From the NCBI RefSeq assembly GCF_041248615.1, contig NZ_CP158426.1: a stretch of 64,000 nt of DNA; one strand, given 5' to 3'. The notes beneath the pieces are model-generated. The model ran no database searches. It saw only the letters and a list, made by a program, of their open reading frames with translations, and was not told the DNA's origin. Source of the DNA: Escherichia coli (GTDB lineage Bacteria; Pseudomonadota; Gammaproteobacteria; Enterobacterales; Enterobacteriaceae). This document shows, piece by piece, positions 4,934 through 41,701 of this stretch. The position numbers and the translations under genes are program-made. How positions within the stretch are numbered: position 1 is the stretch's first letter; the number at the start of each line of letters is the position of its first letter.

Positions 4934-4944
4934 GAGGAATTAAT

Positions 4945-5605: not shown

Positions 5606-5740
5606 ATGAACGCAGTTGAATTTGCAAAATGGATGGCAGAGCAAGATATCACAGGAGCCGACGAAAAGGCTGTGTACTACATGGCTCTGCTATGGATTCA
5701 CAAAGCAAAAGAGGCTGCAAATGCTCTTGGAGGTGAGTGA
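5606..5740 (+). CDS. Hypothetical small protein (44 aa)
   Basis: ATG at 5606 preceded by agagg; the stop overlaps the next start (TGATG). Not in the ORF track because it is under 60 aa. Confidence 0.3.
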   Translation: MNAVEFAKWMAEQDITGADEKAVYYMALLWIHKAKEAANALGGE

Positions 5741-5925: not shown

Positions 5926-6059
5926 GCACTGTGTATTCATTCCAACGAGTGAATACACGGAGCAATGTCGCTCGTAACTAAACAGGAGCCGACTTGTTCT
6001 GATTATTTGAAATCTTCTTTGCCCTCCGATGTGAGGGCAATTTTTTTGATGGAGGATAT

Positions 6060-7025
6060 ATGAGTGAAGTAACAGATTTAGTTGTTATTGAAAAAGCAAA
6101 TGCAATGACTGTATTTCAGTCTGCCGACCAGATTGAAGAAATCCTTCAAAAGGTTGAACGTGAAGTTATGTCCTTTGTGCCTGATATCACAACGGCAAAG
6201 GGCAGAAAGGAGATCGCTTCTCTGGCGTATAAAGTTGCGCAGACGAAAACATATCTCGATGGTCTTGGCAAAGACCTTGTTGCTGAACTGAAGGAAATTC
6301 CAAAGCTAATTGATGCCAACCGCAAGACAGTGCGTGATCGCCTTGATGAGCTGAAAGCCAAGGCACGCCAGCCTCTTACTGATTATGAGGAAGAACAGGC
6401 GCGGATTAAAGCCGAAGAGGAAGCTAAGGCAGCAGCTGAAGCCCTCGCAAAGCAAATTGAGTCTGACCATGAAATAGCGATTTTGATGGATCGCGAATTT
6501 GACCGCAAAAGAGAAGAGGCAAGACTCAAAGTGGAGCAGGAAAAGCGAGAGCATGAAGAACTCTTAAAAAGAGAAGCTGAAGAGAAAGCCAGAGCAGAAG
6601 CCGAAGCAAAGGCAAAAGCCGAAATTGAAGCAGCAGCAAGGCGAGAAGCAGAAGCTAAGGCAGCAGCGGAACGTGCAGAGCGTGAACGCATTGAAGCCGA
6701 GCAACGAGCACAGCGCGAAGCAAAAGAGGCAGCAGAACGAGCTGAAAGAGAAAAGCAGGCAGCAATTGAAGCAGAACGCCGAAAAGCACAGGAGGAGGCT
6801 GAACGAATCCGTCGCGATGCTGAAGCAAAAGAGCAAGCCAGAATAGCAGAAGAAAAAAGAATCAAGGAAGAAGAGCGTAGAGCAAAGGATAAAGCTCACC
6901 GGAAAGAAGTAAATAACAAAATACTTGCTGACCTTATCAAGGTTGGCGCATCAGAAGATGTTGCTAAAAATATCATAACAGCCATCGTAAAAGGCGAAGT
7001 ATTCGCAACAAAAATAACCTACTAA
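6060..7025 (+). CDS. Coiled-coil protein (321 aa) with a long Ala/Glu/Lys/Arg-rich low-complexity core
   Basis: ORF track. N-terminal approx 100 aa are of ordinary composition, followed by an approx 170 aa AEAKA/EAERR-type repeat and a short C-terminal domain. Antisense ORFs in the track here are repeat artefacts. Confidence 0.55.
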   Translation: MSEVTDLVVIEKANAMTVFQSADQIEEILQKVEREVMSFVPDITTAKGRKEIASLAYKVAQTKTYLDGLGKDLVAELKEIPKLIDANRKTVRDRLDELKAKARQPLTDYEEEQARIKAEEEAKAAAEALAKQIESDHEIAILMDREFDRKREEARLKVEQEKREHEELLKREAEEKARAEAEAKAKAEIEAAARREAEAKAAAERAERERIEAEQRAQREAKEAAERAEREKQAAIEAERRKAQEEAERIRRDAEAKEQARIAEEKRIKEEERRAKDKAHRKEVNNKILADLIKVGASEDVAKNIITAIVKGEVFATKITY

Positions 7026-7049
7026 TAAAACCAACATAAGGAACCACCC

Positions 7050-7196
7050 ATGATTTACGCAATCGCGGGAGGCGCTCGCATGGGTGCCTTCCAACTAAAT
7101 GAATCTTTACTTGAACGAATCACCCGTAAATTACGTGACGGATGGAAACGCCTTATCGACATACTTAATCAGCCAGGAGTCCCCAAAAATGGATAA
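7050..7196 (+). CDS. cIII: CIII-like FtsH inhibitor
   Basis: 48 aa MIYAIAGGARMGAFQLNESLLERITRKLRDGWKRLIDILNQPGVPKNG; the central ESLLERITRKLRDGWKRLIDILNQPGVPKNG matches lambda CIII as remembered. RBS aaggaacc. Not in the ORF track. Confidence 0.7.
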   Translation: MIYAIAGGARMGAFQLNESLLERITRKLRDGWKRLIDILNQPGVPKNG

Positions 7197-7302
7197 AACA
7201 CTTATGGCTATCCAGACTAAATTCACTATCGCCGCTTTTATTGGCGATGAAAAGATGTTTCGTGAGGCCGTCGAAGCCTACAGAAAATGGAGGTCAAAAT
7301 GA
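7189..7302 (+). CDS. kil: Kil-like host-killing / division inhibitor protein
   Basis: 37 aa MDKTLMAIQTKFTIAAFIGDEKMFREAVEAYRKW..., resembling lambda Kil from memory. Overlaps the cIII end. The longer track ORF 7099..7302 overlaps cIII in another frame. Confidence 0.6.
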   Translation: MDKTLMAIQTKFTIAAFIGDEKMFREAVEAYRKWRSK

Positions 7303-7487
7303 TTCCGGTAGAACTGGCGAAAACTCCAGAGTTAAGTCGATTAAAAAGAGAATATCACATTGCTGAGGCTCGTTACTGGCGTAAAGCGGGAGATAAATCA
7401 AAGAAACAACTTTGCTTATGGCAGGCACAAAGAGAGCGCATGAATGAGCGTGAGTTTCTTTCCTCCCCATCCGAATTACCATTCTGA
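7299..7487 (+). CDS. Hypothetical small protein (62 aa)
   Basis: ATG at 7299 overlaps the kil stop; ORF track 7287..7487. Confidence 0.4.
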   Translation: MIPVELAKTPELSRLKREYHIAEARYWRKAGDKSKKQLCLWQAQRERMNEREFLSSPSELPF

Positions 7488-7495
7488 GGCAAATT

Positions 7496-8176
7496 ATGGG
7501 AACTGCGACATTAATACTCGGTGAATCTGGCACCGGAAAATCAACCAGCATGAGAAATATCAATCCAGAGGAAGCAATACTTATAAAACCAATAGGCAAG
7601 CCGCTTCCATTTAAATCAAAAGACTGGCTGGCATGGGATGCCAGAGCAAAAAAAGGAACCGTAGTTACCACTGACAAATGGGACGTAATAGTTGCCGTAA
7701 TTAAGCGTGCTCACGAATACGGGAAAAGAATCGTTATTGTTGATGACTTCCAGTATGTGATGAGCAATGAGTTTATGCGCCGCTCAGAAGAAAAATCGTT
7801 TGATAAATTCACTGAGATAGGCCGCCACGCATGGGAGGTGATTAAGGCTGCACAGGATGCACCTGATGACCTGAGAGTCTATTTTCTTGCGCACACCGAA
7901 GAAACCCCTATGGGGCGTGTGAAAATGAAGACTATCGGCAAAATGCTGGACGAGAAAATCACTGTCGAAGGCATGTTTACTATAGTTCTTCGCACCCTTA
8001 CCCGCGATGACCAGTTCTTTTTCACCACGAAAAACAACGGTGCAGACACTGTTAAATCCCCAATGGGAATGTTTGATTCTAATGAGATTGATAACGATCT
8101 CTCTTTCGTCGATGCCACTGTTTGTGATTACTACGGCATCAATAATGTTCATCAAATTAAGGAAAACGCCGCATGA
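7496..8176 (+). CDS. Sak4-type RecA-fold ATPase (putative phage single-strand annealing / recombination protein)
   Basis: 226 aa with Walker A GESGTGKST near the N-terminus and a Walker B-like IVIVDDF. Its size and its pairing with an SSB-like gene fit the Sak4 family. Confidence 0.65.
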   Translation: MGTATLILGESGTGKSTSMRNINPEEAILIKPIGKPLPFKSKDWLAWDARAKKGTVVTTDKWDVIVAVIKRAHEYGKRIVIVDDFQYVMSNEFMRRSEEKSFDKFTEIGRHAWEVIKAAQDAPDDLRVYFLAHTEETPMGRVKMKTIGKMLDEKITVEGMFTIVLRTLTRDDQFFFTTKNNGADTVKSPMGMFDSNEIDNDLSFVDATVCDYYGINNVHQIKENAA

Positions 8177-8760
8177 GCAACGTGATTTTTACTTATAACG
8201 AAGAAGCAGCACTGACCGCAGGGCAAGGTGGTTTTATTAACGAAACTGGTGCTCATATCATTACCATTACTGAAGCAGAACTAAAGCAATCAGAAAAAGG
8301 AGCCAAATTTATTGAGTTTTCTGGCGAATCTGACGACGGACGTAAAATCCAATATCTTAGCGTCTGTGTTCAGAAAAATGACGGAACGGAAAACAAATTT
8401 GGCGCAAATGTCGTTCACGCCATGATGGGGTGTGCCGGGATTGGACAATTAACGCAACATATGGTTTCCGCCAGTAAATTTGTTGCTCCTGAGTTTCATG
8501 GAAAGAAAATCGGGTTAGTGCTCCAGAAAGTATTAACCACAAACAAAAAGACTGGCGCAGACAGCTACCAGATGGAAATACGCATCCCGTTTATTGCACA
8601 AACAGGTCAAACCCTTAAAGAAAAGGCGGAAGGCAAGCAACCAGAAACTATCGCCAACATGGTTGCCAGCCTCAAAGATAAAGACAATCGCTCTAAAAAC
8701 GTAAGCCAGAATCATGCAGATGATTATGGTTACAGCCAGAACGATTACCCTCCATTCTAG
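8173..8760 (+). CDS. Phage SSB-like protein (DUF2815-type partner of Sak4)
   Basis: 195 aa; start overlaps the Sak4 stop. C-terminal acidic/aromatic tail ...DDYGYSQNDYPPF resembles the SSB C-terminal tail. Confidence 0.5.
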   Translation: MSNVIFTYNEEAALTAGQGGFINETGAHIITITEAELKQSEKGAKFIEFSGESDDGRKIQYLSVCVQKNDGTENKFGANVVHAMMGCAGIGQLTQHMVSASKFVAPEFHGKKIGLVLQKVLTTNKKTGADSYQMEIRIPFIAQTGQTLKEKAEGKQPETIANMVASLKDKDNRSKNVSQNHADDYGYSQNDYPPF

Positions 8761-8785
8761 ATTATTGCAAAATAAGGATTCCATT

Positions 8786-9082
8786 ATGCCAGCGCCTCTG
8801 TATGGTGCGGATGACCCGCGCAATTGCTCCGGTAGCTCCAAGGCGGAGGTGCTGGAAAATATCAAAAACAATTTCGACGCGTTTCTTGCTCTGACACCAG
8901 AAACAAAAGCAGAACGGATGTACCGACGCGATATACAACTCGCGCTAAAACAGGAGAAGGACCGAACAAACGAAACAGCAATGAGACCGTTGCGAAAAGC
9001 GACAATAGACAAATTCCCTGAATATATCGACCCGCGCCTGCGTAATTACCGCTCACGCTATGGCGCTATCAGTAATGACTGA
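8786..9082 (+). CDS. Hypothetical protein (98 aa)
   Basis: ORF track 8714..9082 trimmed to ATG 8786 with RBS aaggatt. Confidence 0.45.
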
Positions 9083-9092
9083 GGAATTTACA

Positions 9093-9260
9093 ATGAGAGG
9101 ACTTGCATACAATCCCGGCATTCTTCCGGCAGAAATGATTATTCGCCAACGCGTAAAGCCAATGCCATCGAGAGAGGAATTGCTTAAGAGAAATTCTTTT
9201 CCGTCAGTAAATCAAAACAAATATCTGAATGCGATGTGGCGCAAAGGAGGCAAGCAGTGA
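9093..9260 (+). CDS. Hypothetical small protein (55 aa)
   Basis: ATG 9093 preceded by gagga; within track ORF 9060..9260. Confidence 0.35.
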
Positions 9261-9556
9261 GTGTATATCTTATTGATAAACGTCGACGTGGGCAACAAAT
9301 ACCACCTGTAGGAATTCCGAATCACACATGGTTTTGCGTACTTGATATCGATGGTATGGATGCGTTGGTTGACACTCGTCATTACTGCGATACCGCAACA
9401 GCTACTCCGGCGAAAGCAAAGAAAATGGCTGCTCTGATAGAAAACTGGACTCCACCTGATGGTTGGTGCAATGGGAATGATCGAGATTGGCATGAAAAAA
9501 TGAAGGGCTATATCTGCGATTTCTTACGTAAATGCAACGGCTTCAGGGTGATGTGA
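9257..9556 (+). CDS. Hypothetical protein (99 aa; GTG start assumed)
   Basis: Track ORF 9236..9556. aggagg at 9245-9250 favours GTG 9257 as the start, overlapping the upstream stop. Start is uncertain. Confidence 0.4.
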
Positions 9557-9557
9557 C

Positions 9558-10175
9558 ATGAACAAGATTGACTATCAGGCACTGCGTGAAGCGGCAGAGC
9601 AGGCAATGCATGACGACTGGGGATTTGACGCAGACCTTTTCCATGAATTGGTAACACCATCGATTGTGCTGGAACTGCTGGATGAACGGGAAAGAAACCA
9701 GCAATACATCAAACGCCGCGACCAGGAGAACGAGGATATTGCGCTAACGGTAGGGAGGCTTCGCGTTGAGCTGGAAGGCAAAGACAGCAAAATAGCCAAT
9801 CTTACCGCCGAACGCGATGCTCTTCGTGAAGGTGAGATGGGCGACGCTAGGCATAGCAACACACGGGCCGCAGCTGATATCTACTTCCAACTGGTCGAGG
9901 AGTGCGAAATTCCTGCTGGCGGATCTCTGGTCGAGTACGTTGACGATATGCGCGAGAAGCTGGAAGCTGCAGAGAAGCGCATTGCAGAGTTAGAAAGTGG
10001 TTCTCAGGCACAAAAGTTAGTTGAAGCAATCATTGTTGCGATAGAAAACGAACAGGAAAGGCTTTTTGATGAAGATTACCTAATGGATTCGAAAGAATGC
10101 ATTGACGTAATTCGTGAAGAAGTAAAGCGATGGAATGATTCCCGTGCCGCTGGCATTCGCATCAAAGGAGAGTGA
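9558..10175 (+). CDS. Hypothetical coiled-coil protein (205 aa), possibly Ea22-like
   Basis: ORF track. Acidic, coiled-coil-rich. Lies in the ea/b2-equivalent region between the recombination module and xis. Family assignment is by recollection only. Confidence 0.4.
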   Translation: MNKIDYQALREAAEQAMHDDWGFDADLFHELVTPSIVLELLDERERNQQYIKRRDQENEDIALTVGRLRVELEGKDSKIANLTAERDALREGEMGDARHSNTRAAADIYFQLVEECEIPAGGSLVEYVDDMREKLEAAEKRIAELESGSQAQKLVEAIIVAIENEQERLFDEDYLMDSKECIDVIREEVKRWNDSRAAGIRIKGE

Positions 10176-10176
10176 T

Positions 10177-10719
10177 ATGACCACTATAACCGATAAGAAA
10201 CAGTATCCCAGCGAGCAATATCTTAATGAGCTGATCACCAACATAGAGTTTGCTGCAAGGGCACCAGTTGAAGTCGTGAGAGCGATGGCAGCAGAGCTAC
10301 AGAAGCGGCGCGAAGCTGATAGTGCAGAACCTGCAAGTAATCATGAAGAGTTGCCGCTTGATTATCTCCAAGGTCAAAAAGATGGTCTTGAATGGGCTGC
10401 GCAGCTTGCAGAAGCAAATCACCCACAAACTGGCGACTGGCTTTACGATGACCCGCTGGAGCTGGCTAAAGCTATCAGAAAAGGTCCTGACATGCCCGAA
10501 TTCGATGGACCAACTCCGGTAACTCCGGATGGTTGGATAAGCTGTAGTGAGCGAATGCCCGCTCAAGATGATTGGATTTTAATTTATTCAAAGCACGGCG
10601 AGTATATGGCAGGACAGGTACAAGGGGAATACGTGGAGTTGAGCGACGGCACTTTATCGTGGTTAGGGAACGCCTTGTACTGGATGCCTCTACCGGAACC
10701 GCCGCAGGAGGTGAAGTGA
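10177..10719 (+). CDS. Hypothetical protein (180 aa), C-terminal DUF551-like domain
   Basis: Track ORF 10135..10719 trimmed to ATG 10177 with RBS aaaggagag. C-terminal W/Y-rich segment (GWISCSERMP...DDWILIY...WMPLPEPP) resembles DUF551. Confidence 0.45.
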   Translation: MTTITDKKQYPSEQYLNELITNIEFAARAPVEVVRAMAAELQKRREADSAEPASNHEELPLDYLQGQKDGLEWAAQLAEANHPQTGDWLYDDPLELAKAIRKGPDMPEFDGPTPVTPDGWISCSERMPAQDDWILIYSKHGEYMAGQVQGEYVELSDGTLSWLGNALYWMPLPEPPQEVK

Positions 10720-10997
10720 TGGACTCCTTCGCGAAATATACGATTATTGACTGGATAGCCTTCCTTCAGGTTTTACTCATCTGGTTTTATATGGCTTACA
10801 GGAGTGGACAGTGGATTGTCAGTATAGCCTGTAGCAAGGGATGGCGTTGGTGGAACCGAAAGAATAAAAAAGCACTGGCATTGGATTCGTTTTACGAAGC
10901 ATTCAATCTTAACAGCCTTCAGCCTGGTTCTGTCGTTGTAGTCACCACTCAAAGCGGCATGACGATACAAATTCACAAGCCAAAGGATGAAAAATGA
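10719..10997 (+). CDS. Hypothetical small membrane protein (92 aa)
   Basis: ATG 10719 overlaps the upstream stop, RBS ggagg. One hydrophobic segment (IIDWIAFLQVLLIWFYMAY). Confidence 0.4.
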   Translation: MDSFAKYTIIDWIAFLQVLLIWFYMAYRSGQWIVSIACSKGWRWWNRKNKKALALDSFYEAFNLNSLQPGSVVVVTTQSGMTIQIHKPKDEK

Positions 10998-11083
10998 TGT
11001 GGCCTATATGCGTTAATTGCGGACGGATGTGCCTATCTGGATGGTGCCGAAAGTGCGACAAATGCACGAAGAAAAGACAATAA
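10994..11083 (+). CDS. Cys-rich micro-ORF (29 aa, CxxC-x3-C-x4-CxxCxxC)
   Basis: MMWPICVNCGRMCLSGWCRKCDKCTKKRQ; start overlaps the upstream stop. Very short, so it may not be translated. Confidence 0.25.
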   Translation: MMWPICVNCGRMCLSGWCRKCDKCTKKRQ

Positions 11084-11142
11084 CAATCCTCGCACTCGCG
11101 GGGATTTCTTTTATCTGAACTCGCTACGGCGGGTTTTGTTTT

Positions 11143-11454
11143 ATGGAGATGATTATGGCCTGTTCAACATTCACCACTTTAACGTTACAGAAATACCAGC
11201 CAGACCCTGAAGATTTATACTCACTGTGTGGCGGAAATCATGGTAAAGCCGCCATGATCGAATGTAAGGACAAAATCCACATATGCCTTAATTGCGTTGA
11301 TGTCCTCGTTGATATCAAAAATGAAAGAGAAGATAAAAAGCGTAGCGAGGCTATTCGCGCCTTAGATTCATGGATGCGAGATGGGTATAGTGCTGCGCAA
11401 ATTTATGACTTAGCCATTTCAAAAGGCGAAATACCAGGAGTGCGCATCGAATAA
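11143..11454 (+). CDS. Hypothetical protein (103 aa)
   Basis: ORF track; followed by an intrinsic terminator. Confidence 0.4.
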   Translation: MEMIMACSTFTTLTLQKYQPDPEDLYSLCGGNHGKAAMIECKDKIHICLNCVDVLVDIKNEREDKKRSEAIRALDSWMRDGYSAAQIYDLAISKGEIPGVRIE

Positions 11455-11496
11455 GACGTAACCAATATTCGAATTGAAGAACTGAAAGAACACCAA

Positions 11497-11518
11497 GCCG
11501 CCTGATGGCGGTTTTTTC
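11497..11518 (+). terminator. Intrinsic terminator upstream of xis
   Basis: Stem gccgcc/ggcgg with loop tgat, followed by tttttt. Confidence 0.5.
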
Positions 11519-11544
11519 TTGCGTGTAATTGCGGAGACTTTGCG

Positions 11545-11763
11545 ATGTACTTGACACTTCAGGAGTGGAATGCACGCCAGCGACGCCCAAGAAGCCTTGA
11601 AACAGTTCGTCGATGGGTGCGCGAATGCAGGATATTCCCTCCTCCGGTTAAGGATGGAAGAGAATATCTGTTCCACGAATCAGCGGTAAAGGTTGACTTA
11701 AATCGACCAGTAACAGGTAGCCTTTTGAAGAGGATCAGAAATGGGAAGAAGGCGAAGTCATGA
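11545..11763 (+). CDS. xis: Excisionase Xis
   Basis: 72 aa MYLTLQEWNARQRRPRSLETVRRWVRECRIFPPPVKDGREYLFHESAVKVDL...; matches lambda Xis from memory. Overlaps the int start. Confidence 0.9.
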   Translation: MYLTLQEWNARQRRPRSLETVRRWVRECRIFPPPVKDGREYLFHESAVKVDLNRPVTGSLLKRIRNGKKAKS

Positions 11764-12811
11764 GCGCCGGGATTTACCCCCTAACCTTTATATAAGAAAC
11801 AATGGATATTACTGCTACAGGGACCCAAGGACGGGTAAAGAGTTTGGATTAGGCAGAGACAGGCGAATCGCAATCACTGAAGCCATACAGGCCAACATTG
11901 AGTTATTTTCAGGACACAAACACAAGCCTCTGACAGCGAGAATCAACAGTGATAATTCCGTTACGCTACATTCATGGCTTGATCGCTACGAAAAAATCCT
12001 GGCCAGCAGAGGAATCAAGCAGAAGACACTCATAAATTACATGAGCAAAATTAAAGCAATAAGGAGGGGGCTGCCTGATGCTCCACTTGAAGACATCACC
12101 ACAAAAGAAATTGCGGCAATGCTCAATGGATACATAGACGAGGGCAAGGCGGCGTCAGCCAAGTTAATCAGATCAACACTGAGCGATGCATTCCGAGAGG
12201 CAATAGCTGAAGGCCATATAACAACAAACCCTGTCGCTGCCACTCGCGCAGCAAAATCAGAGGTAAGGAGATCAAGACTTACGGCTGACGAATACCTGAA
12301 AATTTATCAAGCAGCAGAATCATCACCATGTTGGCTCAGACTTGCAATGGAACTGGCTGTTGTTACCGGGCAACGAGTTGGTGATTTATGCGAAATGAAG
12401 TGGTCTGATATCGTAGATGGATATCTTTATGTCGAGCAAAGCAAAACAGGCGTAAAAATTGCCATCCCAACAACATTGCATGTTGATGCTCTCGGGATAT
12501 CAATGAAGGAAACACTTGATAAATGCAAAGAGATTCTTGGCGGAGAAACCATAATTGCATCTACTCGTCGTGAACCGCTTTCATCCGGCACAGTATCAAG
12601 GTATTTTATGCGCGCACGAAAAGCATCAGGTCTTTCCTTCGAAGGGGATCCGCCTACCTTTCACGAGTTGCGCAGTTTGTCTGCAAGACTCTATGAGAAG
12701 CAGATAAGCGATAAGTTTGCTCAACATCTTCTCGGGCATAAGTCGGACACCATGGCATCACAGTATCGTGATGACAGAGGCAGGGAGTGGGACAAAATTG
12801 AAATCAAATAA
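11741..12811 (+). CDS. int: Tyrosine integrase Int (lambda-type)
   Basis: 356 aa MGRRRSHERRDLPPNLYIRNNGYYCYRDPRTGKEFGLGRD...; essentially lambda Int from memory. The adjacent P' arm and core follow. Confidence 0.95.
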   Translation: MGRRRSHERRDLPPNLYIRNNGYYCYRDPRTGKEFGLGRDRRIAITEAIQANIELFSGHKHKPLTARINSDNSVTLHSWLDRYEKILASRGIKQKTLINYMSKIKAIRRGLPDAPLEDITTKEIAAMLNGYIDEGKAASAKLIRSTLSDAFREAIAEGHITTNPVAATRAAKSEVRRSRLTADEYLKIYQAAESSPCWLRLAMELAVVTGQRVGDLCEMKWSDIVDGYLYVEQSKTGVKIAIPTTLHVDALGISMKETLDKCKEILGGETIIASTRREPLSSGTVSRYFMRARKASGLSFEGDPPTFHELRSLSARLYEKQISDKFAQHLLGHKSDTMASQYRDDRGREWDKIEIK

Positions 12812-12884
12812 TGATTTTATTTTGACTGATAGTGACCTGTTCGTTGCAACAAATTGATAAGCAATGCTTTTTTATAATGCCAAC

Positions 12885-12899
12885 TTAGTATAAAAAAGC
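12885..12899. other. att-lambda common core (attL junction: host B arm - core - phage P' arm)
   Basis: The + strand carries ttagtataaaaaagc, the reverse complement of the lambda core GCTTTTTTATACTAA. It is flanked on the phage side by the lambda P' arm (gttggcattataaaaaagcattgcttatcaatttgttgcaacgaacaggtcactatcagtcaaaataaaatcatta on the reverse strand) and on the host side by caggcttca, as in E. coli attB. Confidence 0.85.
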
Positions 12900-12945
12900 A
12901 GGCTTCAACGGATTCATTTTTCTATTTCATAGCCCGGAGCAACCT

Positions 12946-14229
12946 GTGAACACATTTTCAGTTTCCCGTCTGGCGCTGGCATTGGCTTTTGGCGTGACGC
13001 TGACCGCCTGTAGCTCAACACCGCCCGATCAACGTCCTTCTGATCAAACCGCGCCTGGTACCTCTTCTCGCCCGATTCTGTCGGCAAAAGAAGCGCAGAA
13101 TTTCGATGCTCAACACTATTTTGCATCCCTGACACCAGGTGCGGCAGCGTGGAATCCTTCCCCGATTACCCTGCCTGCACAACCTGACTTTGTTGTCGGC
13201 CCGGCGGGTACTCAAGGTGTAACGCATACCACGATTCAGGCGGCGGTAGATGCGGCAATTATCAAGCGTACCAACAAGCGCCAGTATATTGCCGTGATGC
13301 CTGGTGAGTATCAGGGAACGGTGTATGTCCCTGCCGCTCCGGGTGGAATTACTCTGTACGGTACAGGTGAAAAACCGATTGATGTGAAGATTGGGCTTTC
13401 CCTTGATGGGGGCATGAGCCCCGCCGACTGGCGTCACGACGTCAACCCGCGCGGCAAATATATGCCAGGTAAACCAGCGTGGTATATGTACGATAGCTGC
13501 CAGAGCAAACGCAGCGACAGTATCGGCGTTCTCTGCTCTGCGGTCTTCTGGTCACAAAACAATGGCCTGCAACTGCAAAACCTGACCATCGAAAACACGC
13601 TGGGCGATAGCGTAGATGCGGGTAACCATCCGGCGGTGGCACTGCGTACTGATGGCGACAAAGTGCAGATCAATAACGTCAACATTCTCGGTCGTCAGAA
13701 TACCTTCTTTGTCACCAACAGTGGTGTGCAAAACCGTCTGGAAACCAACCGTCAGCCGCGTACTCTGGTGACCAACAGTTACATTGAAGGGGATGTGGAT
13801 ATCGTTTCTGGTCGCGGCGCAGTGGTGTTCGATAACACCGAATTCCGCGTGGTGAACTCCCGTACCCAGCAAGAAGCGTATGTGTTTGCACCGGCTACGC
13901 TGTCCAACATTTACTACGGTTTCCTCGCCGTAAACAGCCGTTTCAATGCTTCCGGTGATGGCGTGGCGCAACTGGGCCGCTCGCTGGATGTTGATGCCAA
14001 TACCAACGGTCAGGTGGTGATCCGTGATAGTGCCATCAACGAAGGTTTTAACACAGCCAAACCGTGGGCTGATGCGGTGATCTCTAATCGTCCGTTTGCG
14101 GGTAACACCGGCAGCGTTGATGATAACGACGAAGTACAGCGCAATCTGAATGACACTAACTACAACCGCATGTGGGAATACAATAACCGCGGCGTGGGTA
14201 GCAAAGTGGTTGCAGAGGCGAAGAAGTAA
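12946..14229 (+). CDS. ybhC: Putative pectinesterase-family lipoprotein YbhC
   Basis: 427 aa, GTG start, lipoprotein signal (LTACSS). Gene adjacent to att-lambda in K-12 order. Confidence 0.85.
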   Translation: MNTFSVSRLALALAFGVTLTACSSTPPDQRPSDQTAPGTSSRPILSAKEAQNFDAQHYFASLTPGAAAWNPSPITLPAQPDFVVGPAGTQGVTHTTIQAAVDAAIIKRTNKRQYIAVMPGEYQGTVYVPAAPGGITLYGTGEKPIDVKIGLSLDGGMSPADWRHDVNPRGKYMPGKPAWYMYDSCQSKRSDSIGVLCSAVFWSQNNGLQLQNLTIENTLGDSVDAGNHPAVALRTDGDKVQINNVNILGRQNTFFVTNSGVQNRLETNRQPRTLVTNSYIEGDVDIVSGRGAVVFDNTEFRVVNSRTQQEAYVFAPATLSNIYYGFLAVNSRFNASGDGVAQLGRSLDVDANTNGQVVIRDSAINEGFNTAKPWADAVISNRPFAGNTGSVDDNDEVQRNLNDTNYNRMWEYNNRGVGSKVVAEAKK

Positions 14230-14261
14230 AAAAGAAAACCCGATAGTCTGAACCATCGGGT
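14226..14261 (-). terminator. Candidate intrinsic terminator downstream of ybhJ
   Basis: Hairpin aacccgat...atcgggtt followed on the minus strand by a T-rich tract. Confidence 0.35.
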
Positions 14262-14271
14262 TAATGAAACT

Positions 14272-14300
14272 GGGCGCTATATTTCATAGCGCCTTTTTTT
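14272..14300 (+). terminator. Intrinsic terminator downstream of ybhC
   Basis: Hairpin ggcgctat-atttc-atagcgcc followed by tttttttt. Confidence 0.5.
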
Positions 14301-16560
14301 ACATCTGACGGTTTTTATTGAAGTTAATCAAACTACCCGCCTTGATAATCTCGCGCTCTTCGGCCGTCAGGCTTTCCATGTAAAGCGTAATTTCCGTTAC
14401 CGGCGCATCTTCATGGATCACATAACCTTTAAACGTCGTACCCGGATTATCCAGCGCTGCTTTAATGCCAGGGATGTAAATGTAATCACCTACGTCAAAG
14501 TTCGGTGCTTCCGCCATTTGCAGCGGTAACATCCCCCAGTTGATGACGTTAGAACGGTAGCGTTTAGTCGCGTACTCCTCGGCAATATTCGCCAGACCGC
14601 CAATCACACGCTGGCAGCTCGCCGCCTGCTCACGCGCAGAACCATCGCCTGGTTTCACCGCATAGACCATGCTGCCAATTTCAGTTTGCAGCGGATCAAT
14701 ATGCTCCTGACCAGCAATCTGCTTAATGCGCGCAAACACCTCTGTCAGCTCGCTGACATTCCCCGCCAGACGCTGATTTTCCAGTTCAGCAGTCGCTTTA
14801 CTTCTGCCAACATAACCTGGATCGCGACGTGACAGGGTAAACTCCGCCAGACCAATCGGATTTGAACGATAAGAAGAGGTTTCACCGGAAGGAATCAATT
14901 CGTCGGTGGTGGTCACTTCGTCGAGGATCTTCGAGCACACTTTGAGGACGATATTGTCAGTCAGCGCACCCAATTCCGGCCAGTCTTTAATGTTCGGTCC
15001 GTAAATCAGCGGTTGCTGAGTTGCCCCTTTCACAAAGCCCTGATAAACACGGTTTTTATACGGCGTTACATCGAAGGCGTACTCCGGCACGTTGTCCCAG
15101 CAATCAAGTTCGCTGGCAGAGGTTAAATAGCCACCGTTTGCCGCAGTCGCAGCGATAGAACGAGCGTCCATCAACGCCACCGCTGACATCTGCCCATTAG
15201 CTGGCTTAGAGCCTTCGCGGTTCGGGAAGTTACGTGTGGTGTGGCGAATACTCAAACCGTTGTTGATTGGCGTATCGCCCGCGCCAAAGCATGGGCCGCA
15301 GAACGCGGTTCTGATGATTGCGCCTGCGCCAATCAAATCTGCTACCACACCTTTTTTGGCGAGATCCATAAACACCGGCTGTGATGACGGGTAAACCGCT
15401 AACGAGAAGGTGTCATTGCCACAGGATTGACCGCGCAGTGCATTCGCCGCCGCGATGACGTTTTCGTAGTTACCGCCAGAACAGCCCGCGATAATCCCCT
15501 GCTGCACTTTCAGGCGACCGTTTTCGACTTTATCCAGCAGCGAGAGTTTGGCTTTACCGTGCGCCACGCGCTCGGACTCAATTTCAATCTCACGCAGAAT
15601 ATCGGTCAGGTTCTGGTTCAGCGTGTCGATTTCATACACGTTGCTCGGGTGAAACGGCAGCGCAATCATTGGTTTGATGGCGCTTAAATCAACGCTGATG
15701 CAGCCATCGTAGTACGCCATCGGTTGAGGGTTAAGCTGGCAGTAATCCTGGCCGCGACCGTGCAGCGCCAGCCAGTTATGGACTTCTTCATCGGTTTGCC
15801 AGACAGAACTTAAACAGGTCGTTTCCGTGGTCATAACGTCAACGCTGTTACGGAAATCGGTAGAGAGCGCAGCAACACCGGGACCTACGAATTCCATCAC
15901 TTTGTTTTTGACGTAGCCGTTTTTGAACACGGCACCGATGATAGCCAGCGCCACATCCTGTGGCCCCACATACGGCGCTGGTTTTCCGGTCAGATGCACC
16001 GCAACAACTCCCGGATAGTCGATATCCCAGGTGTCATTAAGCAATTGTTTTACCAACTCGCCGCCGCCCTCACCGACTGCCATTGTCCCTAATGCACCGT
16101 AACGGGTGTGGCTGTCTGACCCGAGGATCATTTTGCCGCCGCCTGCCATCATCTCACGCATATATTGATGGATGACCGCAATATGCGGAGGCACAAAAAT
16201 ACCGCCATAACGCTGAGCCGCCGATAAACCAAAAACATGGTCATCACCGTTAATGGTGCCACCGACGGCGCAAAGTGAGTTATGGCAGTTGGTCAGCACA
16301 TACGGCAGCGGGAAACGTTCCATACCGGACGCTTTAGCGGTCTGTACAATACCAACAAAGGTAATATCGTGAGAGGCTAATGAATCAAACTTAATTTTAA
16401 GTTTATCCATATTTCCGGACGTATTATGAGAAGAGAGAATAGACCAGGAAATAGTGCCTTTTTTTGCTTCTTCTTTTTTAATTTCGCCGGTGAAATGTTC
16501 TTCGGCAATTATTTCGTTATTACTGGCGAGAAACACGCCTTTTTCAGATAACTTGATCAT
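14299..16560 (-). CDS. ybhJ: Aconitase-family protein YbhJ
   Basis: Track ORF 14299..16584 (761 aa) trimmed to the internal Met giving approx 753 aa. Aconitase-like sequence; conserved K-12 neighbour. Confidence 0.8.
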
Positions 16561-32470: not shown

Positions 32471-33223
32471 ATGGCTGTAACTAAGCTGGTTCTGGTTCGT
32501 CATGGCGAAAGTCAGTGGAACAAAGAAAACCGTTTCACCGGTTGGTACGACGTGGATCTGTCTGAGAAAGGCGTAAGCGAAGCAAAAGCAGCAGGTAAGC
32601 TGCTGAAAGAGGAAGGTTACAGCTTTGACTTTGCTTACACCTCTGTGCTGAAACGCGCTATCCATACCCTGTGGAATGTGCTGGACGAACTGGATCAGGC
32701 ATGGCTGCCCGTTGAGAAATCCTGGAAACTGAACGAACGTCACTACGGTGCGTTGCAGGGTCTGAACAAAGCGGAAACTGCTGAAAAGTATGGCGACGAG
32801 CAGGTGAAACAGTGGCGTCGTGGTTTTGCAGTGACTCCGCCGGAACTGACTAAAGATGATGAGCGTTATCCGGGTCACGATCCGCGTTACGCGAAACTGA
32901 GCGAGAAAGAACTGCCGCTGACGGAAAGCCTGGCGCTGACCATTGACCGCGTGATCCCTTACTGGAATGAAACTATTCTACCGCGTATGAAGAGCGGTGA
33001 GCGCGTAATCATCGCTGCACACGGTAACTCGTTACGTGCGCTGGTGAAATATCTTGATAACATGAGCGAAGAAGAGATTCTTGAGCTGAATATCCCGACC
33101 GGCGTGCCGCTGGTTTATGAGTTTGACGAGAACTTCAAACCGCTGAAACGCTATTATCTGGGTAATGCTGACGAGATCGCGGCGAAAGCAGCAGCCGTTG
33201 CGAACCAGGGTAAAGCGAAGTAA
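32471..33223 (+). CDS. gpmA: 2,3-bisphosphoglycerate-dependent phosphoglycerate mutase
   Basis: Track ORF 32456..33223 trimmed to [17 protein letters not shown] (250 aa), the histidine phosphatase RHGE motif. Confidence 0.95.
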
Positions 33224-33251
33224 ACGTCATTCGTTTAAAAATAAATATCCT

Positions 33252-33276
33252 CCGGCATAGCCGGAGGTTTTTCAAA
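33252..33276 (+). terminator. Intrinsic terminator after gpmA
   Basis: Hairpin cctccggc-ata-gccggagg followed by ttttt. Confidence 0.5.
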
Positions 33277-33284
33277 TGCGCCTA

Positions 33285-33995
33285 TAAGGCTCTCTTACCA
33301 GCCGCGCCCTAACAGGCGCACACGATCTGACATTTGCATCCAACTTCGTTACTTACGGCCCGTAAACGGGCTGCCCGGATAGGGAATCGATAACTGCTCT
33401 CCCATTTTATCCTCTTCAAGCTGGTGCTTTATGTAATCCTGTATCTTCGCCGTGTTCTTACCCACCGTATCGACGTAGTACCCTCTGCACCAGAACTCTC
33501 TGTTCCTGTATTTGAATTTCAAATCACCAAACTGCTCGTAAAGCATCAGACTGCTTTTCCCTTTCAGATATCCCATAAAGCCGGATACGCTCATTTTGGG
33601 CGGGATCTCCACAAGCATATGGATATGATCTGCACAGCATTCAGCTTCAAGAATCCGTACGCTTTTCCACTCACACAGCTTTCTCAAAATACTGCCTATT
33701 GCTCTACGCTTCTCTCTGTAGAACACTTGTCTTCGGTATTTTGGCGCAAAAACTATGTGATATTTACAGTTCCATCGGGTGTGCGCTAAGCTCTTTTCGT
33801 TCCCCATTGGGACCCCCTTTTGATTTCTTGTTTGACACTTGCAGTTGCCAGACCGCAAGGTGTTTTAACAAATCAAAAGGGGTTTTAATAACTGGCTCAA
33901 AGCTGAAAGCTTTCCGGAACCCCCAGCCTAGCTGGGGGTTTTCTGTGCACAATGAGAAAGCCGACTGCAAGTGAGTCGGCTTTTTTGTTTGTCGT
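33285..33995 (-). mobile_element. IS200-family insertion sequence (approximate ends)
   Basis: Contains a 152 aa Y1 (HUH) transposase gene; element size approx 0.7 kb consistent with IS200. A strong hairpin gccgactgcaagtgagtcggc with T-tract at 33961-33988 lies near the tnpA-proximal end. Exact ends not determined. Confidence 0.6.
33349..33807 (-). CDS. tnpA: IS200/IS605-family transposase TnpA (Y1 HUH transposase)
   Basis: Track ORF 33349..33858 trimmed to MGNEKSLAHTRWNCKYHIVFAPKYRRQVFY... (152 aa), with the HxH motif (DHIHMLVEIPP) and a conserved Tyr region. Confidence 0.85.
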   Translation of the reverse strand: MGNEKSLAHTRWNCKYHIVFAPKYRRQVFYREKRRAIGSILRKLCEWKSVRILEAECCADHIHMLVEIPPKMSVSGFMGYLKGKSSLMLYEQFGDLKFKYRNREFWCRGYYVDTVGKNTAKIQDYIKHQLEEDKMGEQLSIPYPGSPFTGRK

Positions 33996-34009
33996 TGCTA
34001 ACAATGGAG

Positions 34010-34090
34010 CACATTGCCTGATGCGACGCTGCGCGTCTTGCCAGGGCTACGGTGATTCATCGGATACGCCACTCTGACGGCGCATCCGAC
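34010..34090. repeat. REP-like palindromic unit(s) downstream of aroG
   Basis: gcctgatgcgacgctgcgcgtcttgccagggctac and inverted cggatacgccactctgacggcgcatccgac resemble E. coli REP/BIME elements. Confidence 0.4.
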
Positions 34091-34099: not shown

Positions 34100-35152
34100 T
34101 TACCCGCGACGCGCTTTTACTGCATTCGCCAGTTGACGTAACAGAGCATCGGTATCATCCCAGCCAATGCAGGCATCGGTGATGCTCTTGCCATAGGCCA
34201 GCGGTTCCCCACTCTCGAGGCTCTGATTGCCTTCCACCAGATGGCTTTCCACCATCACGCCAATAATGGCCTTTTCGCCACCGGCAATCTGCTGGCAAAC
34301 GTCAGTACAAACATCCATCTGCTTTTTGAATTGTTTGGACGAATTAGCATGGCTGAAATCGATCATCACCTGTGCTGGCAGGCCTGCTTTGTTCAGCCCT
34401 TCTTTCACTTCAGCAACGTGCTTCGCGCTGTAGTTAGGCTCTTTACCGCCGCGCAGAATGATATGGCAATCGCCGTTACCGCTGGTATTCACAATCGCCG
34501 AATGCCCCCATTTCGTTACGGACAGGAAGCAGTGCGGCGCACCGGCGGCATTAATGGCATCGATAGCCACTTTAATCGTACCATCAGTGCCATTTTTGAA
34601 GCCTACCGGGCAAGAAAGACCAGACGCCAGTTCGCGGTGCACCTGCGATTCCGTGGTACGTGCGCCAATTGCGCCCCAGCTCATCAGGTCAGCGAGATAC
34701 TGCGGGGTGATCATATCGAGAAATTCACCCGCCGCTGGCAGACCGCTATCGTTAATATCGAGCAGCAATTTACGGGCGATTCGCAAACCGTCGTTGATCT
34801 GGAAGCTGTTATCCATATGTGGATCGTTAATCAGCCCTTTCCAGCCCACCGTGGTGCGCGGCTTTTCAAAATAGACGCGCATCACGATTTCCAGCTCATC
34901 TTGCAGCTCTTCACGCAGCGCCAGCAAGCGAGTGGCATACTCTTTAGCAGCGACAGGATCATGAATTGAGCACGGACCAATCACAACCAACAGGCGATCA
35001 TCATTACCTTTCAGGATCTTATGGATCGCTTTTCGGGCATGGGCGACCGTATTCGCGGCATTTTCAGTAGCGGGGAATTTTTCCAGCAATGCGACAGGAG
35101 GAAGTAACTCTTTGATTTCTTTGATGCGTAAATCGTCGTTCTGATAATTCAT
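34100..35152 (-). CDS. aroG: DAHP synthase, Phe-sensitive
   Basis: 350 aa MNYQNDDLRIKEIKELLPPVALLEKFPATENAANTVAHARKAIHKILKGNDDRLLVVIGPCSIHDP; matches AroG from memory. Confidence 0.95.
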   Translation of the reverse strand: MNYQNDDLRIKEIKELLPPVALLEKFPATENAANTVAHARKAIHKILKGNDDRLLVVIGPCSIHDPVAAKEYATRLLALREELQDELEIVMRVYFEKPRTTVGWKGLINDPHMDNSFQINDGLRIARKLLLDINDSGLPAAGEFLDMITPQYLADLMSWGAIGARTTESQVHRELASGLSCPVGFKNGTDGTIKVAIDAINAAGAPHCFLSVTKWGHSAIVNTSGNGDCHIILRGGKEPNYSAKHVAEVKEGLNKAGLPAQVMIDFSHANSSKQFKKQMDVCTDVCQQIAGGEKAIIGVMVESHLVEGNQSLESGEPLAYGKSITDACIGWDDTDALLRQLANAVKARRG

Positions 35153-38939: not shown

Positions 38940-39308
38940 GATAGCAAAAAAGCGCCTTTAGGGCGCTTTTTTACATTGGTGGGTCGTGCAGGATGACTCG
39001 CTTCGCTCGCCCTTCGGGCCGTCGCCGCGAGCGGCTCCGTTGTTTCGCTGCGCTCAACTCAAACCTGCTGCAGGTTCGAATCTTTGAGTATCGCAGATAG
39101 CAAAAAAGCGCCTTTAGGGCGCTTTTTTACATTGGTGGGTCGTGCAGGATGACTCGCTTCGCTCGCCCTTCGGGCCGTCGCCGCGAGCGGCTCCGTTGTT
39201 TCGCTGCGCTCAACTCGAACCTGCTGCAGGTTCGAATCTTTGAGTATCGCAGATAGCAAAAAAGCGCCTTTAGGGCGCTTTTTTACATTGGTGGGTCGTG
39301 CAGGATTC
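38940..39308. repeat. Tandem repeat, 156 bp unit x ~2.4, downstream of the tRNA operon; each unit has a terminator hairpin and a 17 nt tRNA-Lys 3' fragment
   Basis: Units at 38940-39095 and 39096-39251, with a partial third copy merging into the 3' end of the last tRNA-Lys. Each unit holds aaaaaagcgcctttagggcgctttttt plus tggtgggtcgtgcagga plus tgactcgcttcgctcgcccttcgggccg... Confidence 0.8.
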
Positions 39309-39364
39309 GAACCTGCGACCAATTGATTAAAAGTCAACTGCTCTACCAACTGAGCTAACGACCC
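39289..39364 (-). tRNA. lysQ: tRNA-Lys (anticodon UUU)
   Basis: 76 nt; reverse complement matches E. coli tRNA-Lys (GGGTCGTTAGCTCAGTTGGTAGAGCAGTTGACTTTTAATCAATTGGTCGCAGGTTCGAATCCTGCACGACCCACCA). Name assigned by K-12 operon order. Confidence 0.9.
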
Positions 39365-39397
39365 CTTGCGGGATTATGCTGCTTTAATCATTCAGGA

Positions 39398-39473
39398 TGG
39401 TGGGTCGTGCAGGATTCGAACCTGCGACCAATTGATTAAAAGTCAACTGCTCTACCAACTGAGCTAACGACCC
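39398..39473 (-). tRNA. lysZ: tRNA-Lys (UUU)
   Basis: Same 76 nt tRNA-Lys sequence; name by K-12 operon order. Confidence 0.9.
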
Positions 39474-39619
39474 ATACGGGTGTTACCTGAAAGATTTCTA
39501 CTCGGAACCAATCTTTAAAATTGGTGGGTCGTGCAGGATGACTCGCTTCGCTCGCCCTTCGGGCCGTTGCTGGCGCAACGTTATCCTTCACGCTTAACAT
39601 CTGAGTTTGATGTTAAAAT

Positions 39620-39695
39620 TGGTGGGTCGTGCAGGATTCGAACCTGCGACCAATTGATTAAAAGTCAACTGCTCTACCAACTGAGCTAACGACCC
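39620..39695 (-). tRNA. lysY: tRNA-Lys (UUU)
   Basis: Same 76 nt tRNA-Lys sequence; name by K-12 operon order. Confidence 0.9.
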
Positions 39696-39698
39696 GAG

Positions 39699-39774
39699 TG
39701 GTGGGTGATGACGGGATCGAACCGCCGACCCCCTCCTTGTAAGGGAGGTGCTCTCCCAGCTGAGCTAATCACCC
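39699..39774 (-). tRNA. valZ: tRNA-Val (anticodon UAC)
   Basis: 76 nt; reverse complement matches E. coli tRNA-Val(UAC) (GGGTGATTAGCTCAGCTGGGAGAGCACCTCCCTTACAAGGAGGGGGTCGGCGGTTCGATCCCGTCATCACCCACCA). Confidence 0.9.
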
Positions 39775-39825
39775 GATACTGCGCTGGATACTACAAACTA
39801 CTTCCACCGAACCCACCGTAATTAG

Positions 39826-39901
39826 TGGTGGGTCGTGCAGGATTCGAACCTGCGACCAATTGATTAAAAGTCAACTGCTCTACCAACTGAGCTAACGACC
39901 C
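39826..39901 (-). tRNA. lysW: tRNA-Lys (UUU)
   Basis: Same 76 nt tRNA-Lys sequence. Confidence 0.9.
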
Positions 39902-39903
39902 GG

Positions 39904-39979
39904 TGGTGGGTGATGACGGGATCGAACCGCCGACCCCCTCCTTGTAAGGGAGGTGCTCTCCCAGCTGAGCTAATCACCC
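39904..39979 (-). tRNA. valT: tRNA-Val (UAC)
   Basis: Same 76 nt tRNA-Val sequence. Confidence 0.9.
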
Positions 39980-40114
39980 GATACTACGCTGGATACTACA
40001 ACTAACTATGTTAGTGGTGGGTCGTGCAGGATGACTCGACTTCGTCTCGCCCTTCGGGCCGTTGCTGACGCAACGTTATCCTTCACGTTTTACTACCGCT
40101 TCCACCTTAGCGAT

Positions 40115-40190
40115 TGGTGGGTCGTGCAGGATTCGAACCTGCGACCAATTGATTAAAAGTCAACTGCTCTACCAACTGAGCTAACGACCC
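40115..40190 (-). tRNA. lysT: tRNA-Lys (UUU), first gene of the operon
   Basis: Same 76 nt tRNA-Lys sequence; the promoter is expected upstream at higher coordinates. Confidence 0.9.
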
Positions 40191-40354: not shown

Positions 40355-41146
40355 TTACATCGCGTTCAGACGTTTTTGCGCCTGTTTAGCGCCATCAGTA
40401 CCAGGGTATTTACTGATAACCTGCTGGTATACGGCTTTCGCTTTTGCGGTATCACCTTTGTCCTGCATGATGACGCCGACTTTAAACATCGCATCTGCAG
40501 CCTTTGGTGACTTCGGATAGTTTTTCACTACCGAAGCAAAATAATACGCCGCATCATCTTTTTTACCCTTGTTGTAGTTTAACTGACCCAGCCAATAATT
40601 GGCGTTTGGCAGGTAAGTTGAATCAGGGTAATTTTTGATGAAATTCTGAAATGCCACCATTGCGTCATCCTGGCGGGATTTATCCTGCACCAGCGCAATA
40701 GCTGCATTGTAATCCGTGTTTGCATCACCGCTTTTCACCGGCGCGCCAGCATTCGCAGTACCAGCATCAGCTGTCGGCGTCGTTGATGCCGCCGCACCGC
40801 TTTGATCGCCGCTGGTTGATTGCGCCGCTGCACCACCGCTGCTGAGGCTATCGATCTGCAACAGGATCTGCTTTTGCCGCTCCACGACCTGATTCAGTTG
40901 ATACTGATTTTCCTGAATCTGACCACGCAGGGAATCAATATCGGATTGATTATCAGAGAGTTGTTGCTGGAGTTGGGTTAAAAGCTGGCTGTGAGCATTT
41001 GAAATACGCTCAAGTTGAGTGACGCGGTCTTCGACCGAGCCTGAGCCGACACTACTGATTGGTGCCTGAGCAAAAGCGGCCCAGGGGGCCGCTATACCAA
41101 CCAGTAACGACAGACTCAATAGTTGATGTCTGAAGTTACTGCTCAT
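40355..41146 (-). CDS. cpoB: Cell division coordinator CpoB (YbgF), TPR protein
   Basis: 263 aa with signal peptide, coiled coil and C-terminal TPR repeats; downstream of pal. Confidence 0.9.
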   Translation of the reverse strand: MSSNFRHQLLSLSLLVGIAAPWAAFAQAPISSVGSGSVEDRVTQLERISNAHSQLLTQLQQQLSDNQSDIDSLRGQIQENQYQLNQVVERQKQILLQIDSLSSGGAAAQSTSGDQSGAAASTTPTADAGTANAGAPVKSGDANTDYNAAIALVQDKSRQDDAMVAFQNFIKNYPDSTYLPNANYWLGQLNYNKGKKDDAAYYFASVVKNYPKSPKAADAMFKVGVIMQDKGDTAKAKAVYQQVISKYPGTDGAKQAQKRLNAM

Positions 41147-41155
41147 GCAATTCTC

Positions 41156-41701
<546 letters not shown>

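Follow-up and report, generated by a model that had tools for sequence, protein, structure and literature searches.

An intact and probably transposition-competent IS200C element lies between the convergent genes gpmA and aroG in the 64,000-nucleotide stretch of Escherichia coli DNA analyzed here (the window), and it appears to have inserted recently, in the NRZ14408 lineage, into the bidirectional intrinsic terminator that the two genes share. We put the probability of this reading at about 93%. The insertion itself matters little, other than as a lineage marker for NRZ14408-like strains. The element is essentially identical to other IS200C copies and is already known and ordinary. Beside it stands a modestly interesting side result on terminator targeting: in the sites that we compared, IS200-group elements land almost exclusively directly behind intrinsic terminator hairpins. 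Although IS200C is usually called dormant, the same nucleotide between gpmA and aroG appears to have been hit independently in several E. coli lineages.

The element between gpmA and aroG is an IS200C copy

The window has 100% identity to the chromosome of E. coli NRZ14408 (NZ_LT599825.1), in whose record RefSeq labels the transposase "IS200/IS605-like element IS200C family transposase" (WP_000526135.1). A search of the 64-kb window found no IS200 copy other than this one; the NRZ14408 chromosome carries five. The features of the element and its surroundings are collected in Table 1.

The product of tnpA matches the Pfam model Y1_Tnp (PF01797) with an E value of 3.8e-38, covering 120 of 121 model positions. 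Its sequence relatives in the PDB are 2ec2, 2f5g, 2a6m (IS608), and 2xm3 (ISDra2), with E values from 4e-23 to 2e-16, and Sulfolobus IS200-like transposase structures are among these sequence matches. As read from the translation, the HUH motif (H61-I-H63) and the catalytic tyrosine Y125 with Q129 (YIKHQ) are intact, and the catalytic residues align with the conserved blocks of 2ec2. The element encodes tnpA alone, with no tnpB; the remaining open reading frames are antisense overlaps.

Terminal inverted repeats are absent, in that the GTGCAC at one end and the TTTATT at the other are not inverted copies, and each end carries one subterminal hairpin. At the right end, the order on the element strand is GAAAAA, the hairpin, and then the 9-nt sequence ATATTTATT, and this hairpin is kept in all E. 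coli copies examined. At the other end, the Rfam family STnc490, a model of the IS200 left end and 5′ untranslated region (5′UTR), matches far better than chance would allow. The left-end hairpin of IS200 is a bidirectional terminator that keeps outside transcription from tnpA, and the counterpart of the long 5′UTR stem-loop occupies nt 69-138 of Salmonella IS200, where translation is repressed (PMC4513863). The stem-loop region is also the predicted template of the antisense RNA art200. All testable defining features of the IS200 group of the IS200/IS605 family are present in the element.

These features also place the element next to its closest known relatives. Salmonella enterica IS200 and E. 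coli IS200C are likewise about 0.7 kb long with a single 152-aa tnpA. Salmonella IS200 has a left-end terminator hairpin at nt 12-34 (PMC4513863), and the STnc490/art200 region, the right-end hairpin, and the lack of terminal inverted repeats are shared as well. The comparison with IS200 and IS200C revealed no structural difference, and only the location is unusual (6 of 5,426 genomes).

Table 1. Features of the IS200C element and of the gpmA-aroG interval, in window positions
Feature	Position	Strand	Basis or detail
gpmA (phosphoglycerate mutase)	32471-33223	+	stop codon 16-19 nt from IS right end
IS200C outer envelope, net insertion 711 bp	33240-33953	-	empty-site alignment and junction comparison
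Right-end subterminal hairpin CCTCCGGC-TAT-GCCGGAGG, followed by ATATTTATT on the element strand	33249-33267	-	single-stranded DNA fold -10 kcal/mol, z -3.56
tnpA, 152-aa Y1 HUH transposase	33349-33807	-	Pfam, RefSeq, PDB relatives
Long stem-loop in the tnpA 5′UTR, Shine-Dalgarno AAGGGGG buried in the 3′ arm	33814-33882	-	RNA fold -42 kcal/mol, z -3.97
Rfam RF01405 STnc490 match (IS200 left end and 5′UTR)	33817-33940	-	146.4 bits (gathering score 56), match over the whole model
Left-end perfect hairpin AACCCCCAGC-TAG-GCTGGGGGTT	33918-33940	-	fold -11.7 kcal/mol
Native bidirectional gpmA/aroG terminator AAAGCCGACT-7 nt-AGTCGGCTTT (hairpin 33957-33983) with T-run on the + strand	33957-33989	.	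in all empty sites
aroG (DAHP synthase), convergent with gpmA	34100-35152	-	stop codon 117 nt upstream of the native terminator hairpin

Empty sites define the ends of the element and identify its target

We aligned the window with two empty sites, one from the close relative CP103521 and one from the K-12-like strain ATCC 98082, and examined the junctions at eight loci, six of them occupied and two empty. Each time, the net insertion is 711 bp, between ...CGTTTAAAAAT, which ends at 33242, and GAGAAAGCCGAC, which starts at 33954. Because AAT is found at both junctions (an AAT/ATT ambiguity), the element corresponds to either 33240-33950 or 33243-33953. The AAT repeat at both ends makes the junction sequence compatible with a target duplication of 2-3 bp. 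As the targets end in TT and the right end does too, an element of 711 bp without a duplication has the same junctions as one of 709 bp whose target was duplicated over 2 bp. At the thrL site of strain CFT073, the T-run count fits both duplication readings when set against what we take to be the K-12 empty sequence. The reconstructed empty site aligns in one piece in more than 5,400 complete genomes, and the stop codons of gpmA and aroG are 157 bp apart in the K-12-like empty locus L003.

The original prediction had described an IS200-family insertion of about 0.7 kb with a 152-aa Y1/HUH gene and flanking hairpins, in an interval between gpmA and aroG that is short and IS-free in K-12. This description is borne out by the Y1_Tnp match, the RefSeq IS200C label, the open reading frame, the 711-bp insertion with a hairpin near each end, and the empty-site alignments, including the 157-bp interval in L003. 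It had also named the presence of the same sequence in IS-free reference strains as grounds for doubting an insertion, and the segment is missing in 5,419 of the 5,425 genomes with this locus. The span originally proposed, 33285-33995, is shifted by about 45 bp, so that it omits the right-end hairpin and takes in the host terminator hairpin. The placement of the insertion just after the gpmA terminator also has to be revised: the element lies 16-19 nt past the gpmA stop codon, before the native terminator.

The native terminator hairpin gives single-stranded DNA folds of -10 and -10.3 kcal/mol, with z about -4.6. The IS left end begins directly after its minus-strand tail, TTTCTCATT, and the terminator is therefore the insertion target. 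As a candidate gpmA terminator we also considered the hairpin at 33249-33267, which is followed on the + strand by TTTTTC and so has a terminator-like appearance for gpmA. It was rejected, being missing from the empty sites, and for the same reason it is assigned to the IS right end. Annotators can thus confuse the end hairpins of IS200 with host terminators and vice versa, as at gpmA.

The element separates gpmA from its native terminator, which has been moved 711 bp downstream. Transcripts of gpmA would now meet the IS right-end hairpin and its T5 run about 26 nt beyond the stop codon, and this structure may act as a replacement terminator. An effect of the insertion on the gpmA 3′ end is plausible from the sequence, and the locus offers a natural case in which a gene has been severed from its own terminator with a transposon hairpin in its place. 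On the aroG/tnpA strand, the native hairpin and the tail TTTCTCATT are retained, and the 3′ structure of aroG is therefore untouched. Two tandem hairpins precede tnpA, the native terminator and the predicted terminator of the left end, and the gene would be kept tightly repressed.

Divergent flanks indicate recurrent insertion at the same nucleotide

Among 5,426 complete E. coli genomes, 6 have the element between gpmA and aroG, and 5,419 of the 5,425 genomes that contain the locus have it without the insertion. Across the same genomes, IS200C matches occur at 10,748 places in 3,097 of the 5,426; a single genome has up to 35, and 1,287 of the places lie on plasmids. The 714 bp of the outer envelope are 100% identical to a plasmid copy, and many chromosomal copies are 98-99% identical. 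IS200 has been described as essentially dormant (PMC4513863; bioRxiv 10.1101/2024.06.26.600842), whereas these population data point to repeated recent insertions in E. coli. The low activity that the original prediction attributed to IS200 elements therefore needs qualifying, given the number of places occupied and a site apparently hit independently in several lineages. The suggested use as a strain marker holds, with just 6 of 5,426 genomes occupied.

Another explanation would be that the segment is no mobile insertion but is native to the host or encodes a domesticated REP-associated TnpA (RAYT). RAYTs are Y1 HUH proteins akin to the IS200 TnpA and are flanked by hairpins (PMC3333891), which would speak for this explanation. 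The segment is nevertheless missing from the locus in 5,419 of 5,425 genomes, is multi-copy and variable in location (10,748 places, plasmids included), and has the left and right ends of IS200 with no inverted REP/BIME pairs. A REPtron or RAYT is a single-copy Y1 gene at a conserved locus with inverted REP/BIME arrays, and the element does not fit this description. We therefore dismiss this explanation.

In all six occupied loci, the element sits at the same nucleotide and in the same orientation. The flanks are identical between NRZ14408 and isolate 362 (Madrid); those of the other four occupied loci differ from these and from one another by 1-3%. The IS copies at the occupied loci differ by 0-7 of 711 nt (up to 1%), in a pattern discordant with that of the flanks. 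Polymorphisms close to the junctions, within 5-40 bp (CGC/CGT, A4/A5/A6, and a GTTTGTC indel), match different empty haplotypes. When the element is removed from the locus of strain CDE2901-yvys, 0 of 1780 positions differ from the K-12-like empty site, and the same locus is 47-50 substitutions away from the window flanks. Because divergent flank haplotypes carry the element at the same nucleotide and in the same orientation, these data indicate, as the simplest reading, at least four to five independent insertions. An artificial junction with the element in reverse orientation, placed at the T-run on the gpmA side of this terminator, was used as a query and matched 0 of 5,426 genomes.

Two histories with a single insertion were weighed against recurrent insertion. 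In the first, an old insertion in the ancestor of many lineages was later lost nearly everywhere by precise excision, and the six genomes are relics. IS200/IS605 elements do excise precisely, which would leave scarless empty sites, and the identical position and orientation of all six copies would follow directly. This history would, however, need one loss in each of 5,419 of 5,425 genomes. It also sits badly with IS copies that differ by 0-7 of 711 nt in flanks that differ by 1-3%, with discordant patterns, and with the CDE2901-yvys locus, whose flanks show 0 of 1780 differences from the K-12-like empty site. The site moreover fits a general target rule that holds at 110 of 125 unrelated loci among the matches listed (see below), so recurrence there is to be expected. 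We regard an old insertion as exceedingly improbable.

In the second history, there was a single insertion, and homologous recombination of the gpmA-aroG segment carried it from lineage to lineage. E. coli recombines often, and the IS copies of the window and of occupied locus L007 are only 1 base apart in flanks that are 16-50 substitutions apart. Against such transfer, the polymorphisms 5-40 bp from both junctions follow the recipient-type empty haplotype, so that recombination tracts would repeatedly need to end a few bases from the element on both sides. Up to 7 substitutions between IS copies also speak against a single spreading copy. Spread by recombination is thus very improbable in our estimation, and recurrent insertion remains the reading that we carry forward.

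IS200-group insertions follow a hairpin and a T-rich tail

We compared seven independent E. coli IS200C sites on the element strand: this locus, the thrL attenuator of CFT073, htpX/ymgL, ygbN, yfeX/yfeY, pgm/potE, and mcbR/pqqU. All seven show a GC-rich hairpin, a T-rich tail ending in TT, and then the left end, GTGCACAG...; in the window, the flank reads TCATT followed by GTGCAC. A wider sample came from an exact-match scan for the left-end hairpin in species-representative genomes, which yielded at least 120 loci. The same picture was seen, among the matches listed, in Y. pestis IS1541, Vibrio ruber, Brenneria, Pluralibacter, Edwardsiella, and several metagenome-assembled genomes.

The exact left-end match gave 125 unique sites, about half of them from one Y. 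pestis genome, which are distinct as sites and not phylogenetically independent. A strict hairpin lies within 12 nt of the insertion point in 110 of these 125 unique left-end flanks among the matches listed, compared with 423 of 5,000 random positions ending in TT (8.5%) and 396 of 3,000 ending in TTTT (13%). At 73 of 92 sites, 6-9 nt separate the insertion point from the last G:C pair, and T occupies flank positions -5, -2, and -1 in 120, 123, and 112 of the 125, again among the matches listed. The arrangement is polar: where complete elements were recovered, a hairpin abuts the left end in 46 of 51 and the right end in 2 of 51 (among the matches listed). At two Y. pestis loci among the matches listed, the left end is joined straight to the right end of another copy.

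The target architecture of hairpin and T-tail is like the right end of the element itself. Target choice is the likely reason for the repeated occupation of the gpmA/aroG site, since targets of this kind would resemble the element's own right end and the same nucleotide would then be hit independently in several lineages. Older work on IS1541 reportedly noted insertion downstream of genes. A recent preprint describes a statistical association of terminators with such elements (10.1101/2025.07.22.666184), and the terminator association in our sample is consistent with those statistics. In the part of the literature that we searched, we found no explicit statement on the target choice of IS200 or IS1541 beyond that association and a pheL-pheA case, and no description of right-end mimicry or any other mechanistic account of terminator targeting.

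The closest comparison for these sites is IS1541 of Y. pestis and Y. pseudotuberculosis, which shares the left-end hairpin (an exact 22-nt match) and the right-end hairpin with the element. The first 11 nt of its left end differ by one base (GTGCCCAGAAA versus GTGCACAGAAA), and its copy number in Yersinia is much higher. A hairpin, a T-tail, and TT precede the IS1541 left end at about 55 Y. pestis sites among the matches listed. One IS1541 copy lies after the pheL attenuator, between pheL and pheA (PMC3082878), and parallels the IS200C copy after the thrL attenuator in CFT073.

A tentative model of target recognition

In the "peel and paste" cycle of IS608 and ISDra2, the element is excised as single-stranded DNA and integrates 3′ of a short target on the lagging-strand template. 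By this paradigm, TnpA of IS200C would excise the top strand as a single-stranded circle and join it to the lagging-strand template, 3′ of a T-rich target of a few nucleotides. In the window, the + strand has a negative GC skew, and the tnpA-sense strand is the G-rich strand and would thus be the lagging-strand template; this is a weak signal (|skew| 0.01-0.07). Together with the orientation count of 6 versus 0, the skew is consistent with lagging-strand insertion.

The comparative data suggest that the IS200 group would pick an intrinsic-terminator-like structure, a GC-rich hairpin with a T-tail of about 6-9 nt ending in TT. By analogy with the guide pairing of IS608, the A-rich GAAA that precedes each IS hairpin on its 5′ side would pair with the T-rich sequence at which cleavage occurs. 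We therefore offer, as a possibility that we doubt more than we trust, that transposases of the IS200 group (IS200, IS200C, IS1541, and relatives in Vibrio, Desulfovibrionaceae, and others) may recognize intrinsic terminators in single-stranded DNA as mimics of the right end (A-rich guide, hairpin, and ATATTTATT) and not a bare oligonucleotide. The left end would then be pasted exactly where the right end would be cleaved. If right-end mimicry were true, these elements would be DNA transposons that home to terminators by structure, in analogy with group IIC introns. Their silence and the little harm that they do would then be accounted for, as would the tandem IS-IS junctions and the repeated hits at the same nucleotide.

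Selection alone might produce the same pattern, if insertion occurred at any T-rich single-stranded site and the survivors were harmless copies behind terminators, with tnpA shielded from read-through. Intergenic 3′ regions are the safest landing sites, the GAAA motif next to each IS hairpin, on its 5′ side, could on its own give a preference for T-runs under the guide-pairing model of IS608, and upstream terminators have been read as a niche that limits transposase expression (10.1101/2025.07.22.666184). Random positions ending in TTTT, however, have a hairpin in just 13% of cases. Selection alone would also not be sufficient because the position of the junction is fixed to the single nucleotide (T at -2 in 123 of 125 and at -1 in 112 of 125, among the matches listed), the stem spacing is narrow (6-9 nt), and the polarity is strict (46 of 51 left-end versus 2 of 51 right-end flanks, among the matches listed). 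Insertions in attenuators upstream of operons, at thrL-thrA in CFT073 and at pheL-pheA in Yersinia (PMC3082878), are in addition unlikely to be neutral. We consider selection unlikely as the only cause, and selection against other insertions, or for insulation of tnpA, could partly account for the terminator association. If the targeting is enzymatic, it would extend the guide-pairing model of IS608 and would point to a structure-directed "safe harbor" principle of integration.

Related and analogous elements

IS608 of H. pylori and ISDra2 of D. radiodurans have homologous Y1 HUH TnpA proteins (2a6m, E = 4e-19; 2xm3, E = 2e-16). They resemble the element in their subterminal hairpins, in a left end that lies 3′ of a short specific sequence, and in an orientation compatible with the lagging strand. 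Their targets are bare TTAC and TTGAT, respectively, chosen through guide-sequence pairing, and both carry tnpB. To our knowledge, neither needs a hairpin at its target. The IS200 group differs in that it lacks tnpB and in that nearly all of its targets include a hairpin like that of its own right end.

The insertion sites of group IIC (bacterial class C) introns lie a few nucleotides past the stem-loop of a terminator, and the orientation is fixed. Their behavior is like that of the IS200 group and their machinery is unlike it, with a ribozyme and reverse transcriptase for retrohoming versus a DNA-only HUH transposase. The REP-targeting elements IS1397, ISKpn1, and ISPpu9/10, and the REPtrons or RAYTs, are also tied to extragenic hairpin-forming DNA (PMC3333891). 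The former use DDE or DEDD transposases, and RAYTs are immobile, single-copy, and REP-flanked. In contrast to the specific repeated sequence of the REP-targeting elements, the target here is a generic terminator hairpin.

Outside the element, positions 33986-34047 gave a weak, sub-threshold, REP-like match. The sub-threshold Rfam matches to naRNA4 (which stems from REP-like sequence), RcsR1 (which corresponds to the two hairpins), and sR28 were disregarded.

Insertion sites of IS200-group elements

IS200-group elements are almost always preceded, 6-9 nt upstream of the left end, by a GC-rich hairpin with a T-tail ending in TT. This pattern was present at 110 of 125 sites, compared with 8-13% in controls, among the matches listed from an exact left-end-hairpin scan of species-representative genomes (L015-L134) and the E. 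coli IS200C loci (L009-L014). For complete elements among the matches listed, a hairpin adjoined the left end in 46 of 51 and the right end in only 2 of 51. The target, a hairpin followed by a T-tail, is similar to the element's own right end. At two loci in Y. pestis NCTC5923 (L080 and L127), a right end (CCTCCGGCTATGCCGGAGGATATTTATT) is joined directly to a left end (GTGCCCAG...), forming tandem IS1541-IS1541 arrangements. These junctions agree with the right end itself being a target-like structure.

Insertions at attenuators also occur. In E. coli CFT073, an IS200C copy (NC_004431.1, 268-1021) lies between thrL and thrA, in the terminator T-run of the thrL attenuator, and could interfere with regulation of the thr operon by attenuation. 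In Yersinia, IS1541 has been described between pheL and pheA (PMC3082878).

Sequences flanking the gpmA-aroG insertion

The A-run at the right-end junction (window 33237-33241) consists of A4, A5, or A6 in occupied and empty sites alike; NRZ14408 and isolate 362 are otherwise identical, with A5 in the former and A6 in the latter. On the other side, a 7-bp indel, GTTTGTC (~33987-33993), adjoins the T-run of the native terminator and is polymorphic between strains. A REP-like sequence is located between this terminator and the aroG stop codon (33986-34047); it matches Rfam naRNA4 below threshold, scoring 27.9 bits where the gathering score is 59.5.

Distribution and possible routes of spread

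Among the matches listed on MAG contigs (L015-L076), the exact 22-nt IS200 left-end hairpin was found in elements from very distant assigned phyla, with contigs assigned to Bacillota, Saccharibacteria, Mailhella/Desulfovibrio, Elusimicrobiaceae, and Oxalobacter. The ends of these contigs mostly coincide with the IS, where the contigs break. Either the IS200 group has spread widely by horizontal transfer, or these contigs are mis-binned. Among the matches listed, the opening 11 nt of the left end vary by subfamily and read GTGAAACGAAA, GTTAAAAGAAA, or GTATGAAGAAA, among others.

IS200C copies were found at 1,287 places on plasmids and offer a route for horizontal delivery. One copy, on a 216-kb plasmid (NZ_AP025210.2, 63683-64396), is 100% identical to the window copy over 714 bp, a span that takes in the 3-nt junction bases.

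Other features of the window

Structured RNA features elsewhere in the window.
Feature	Coordinates	Strand	Evidence
Seven tRNA genes interleaved with four RtT repeat elements	38977-40190	-	Rfam RF00391 (RtT)
CpoB/ybgF intercistronic RNA thermometer	41117-41255	-	RF02782, full-length match, 139 bits

GC skew is positive over 1-16000 and negative over 16001-64000, and GC content is lower in the first of these segments (0.47-0.48). These differences may stem from the orientation of genes or from acquired DNA.
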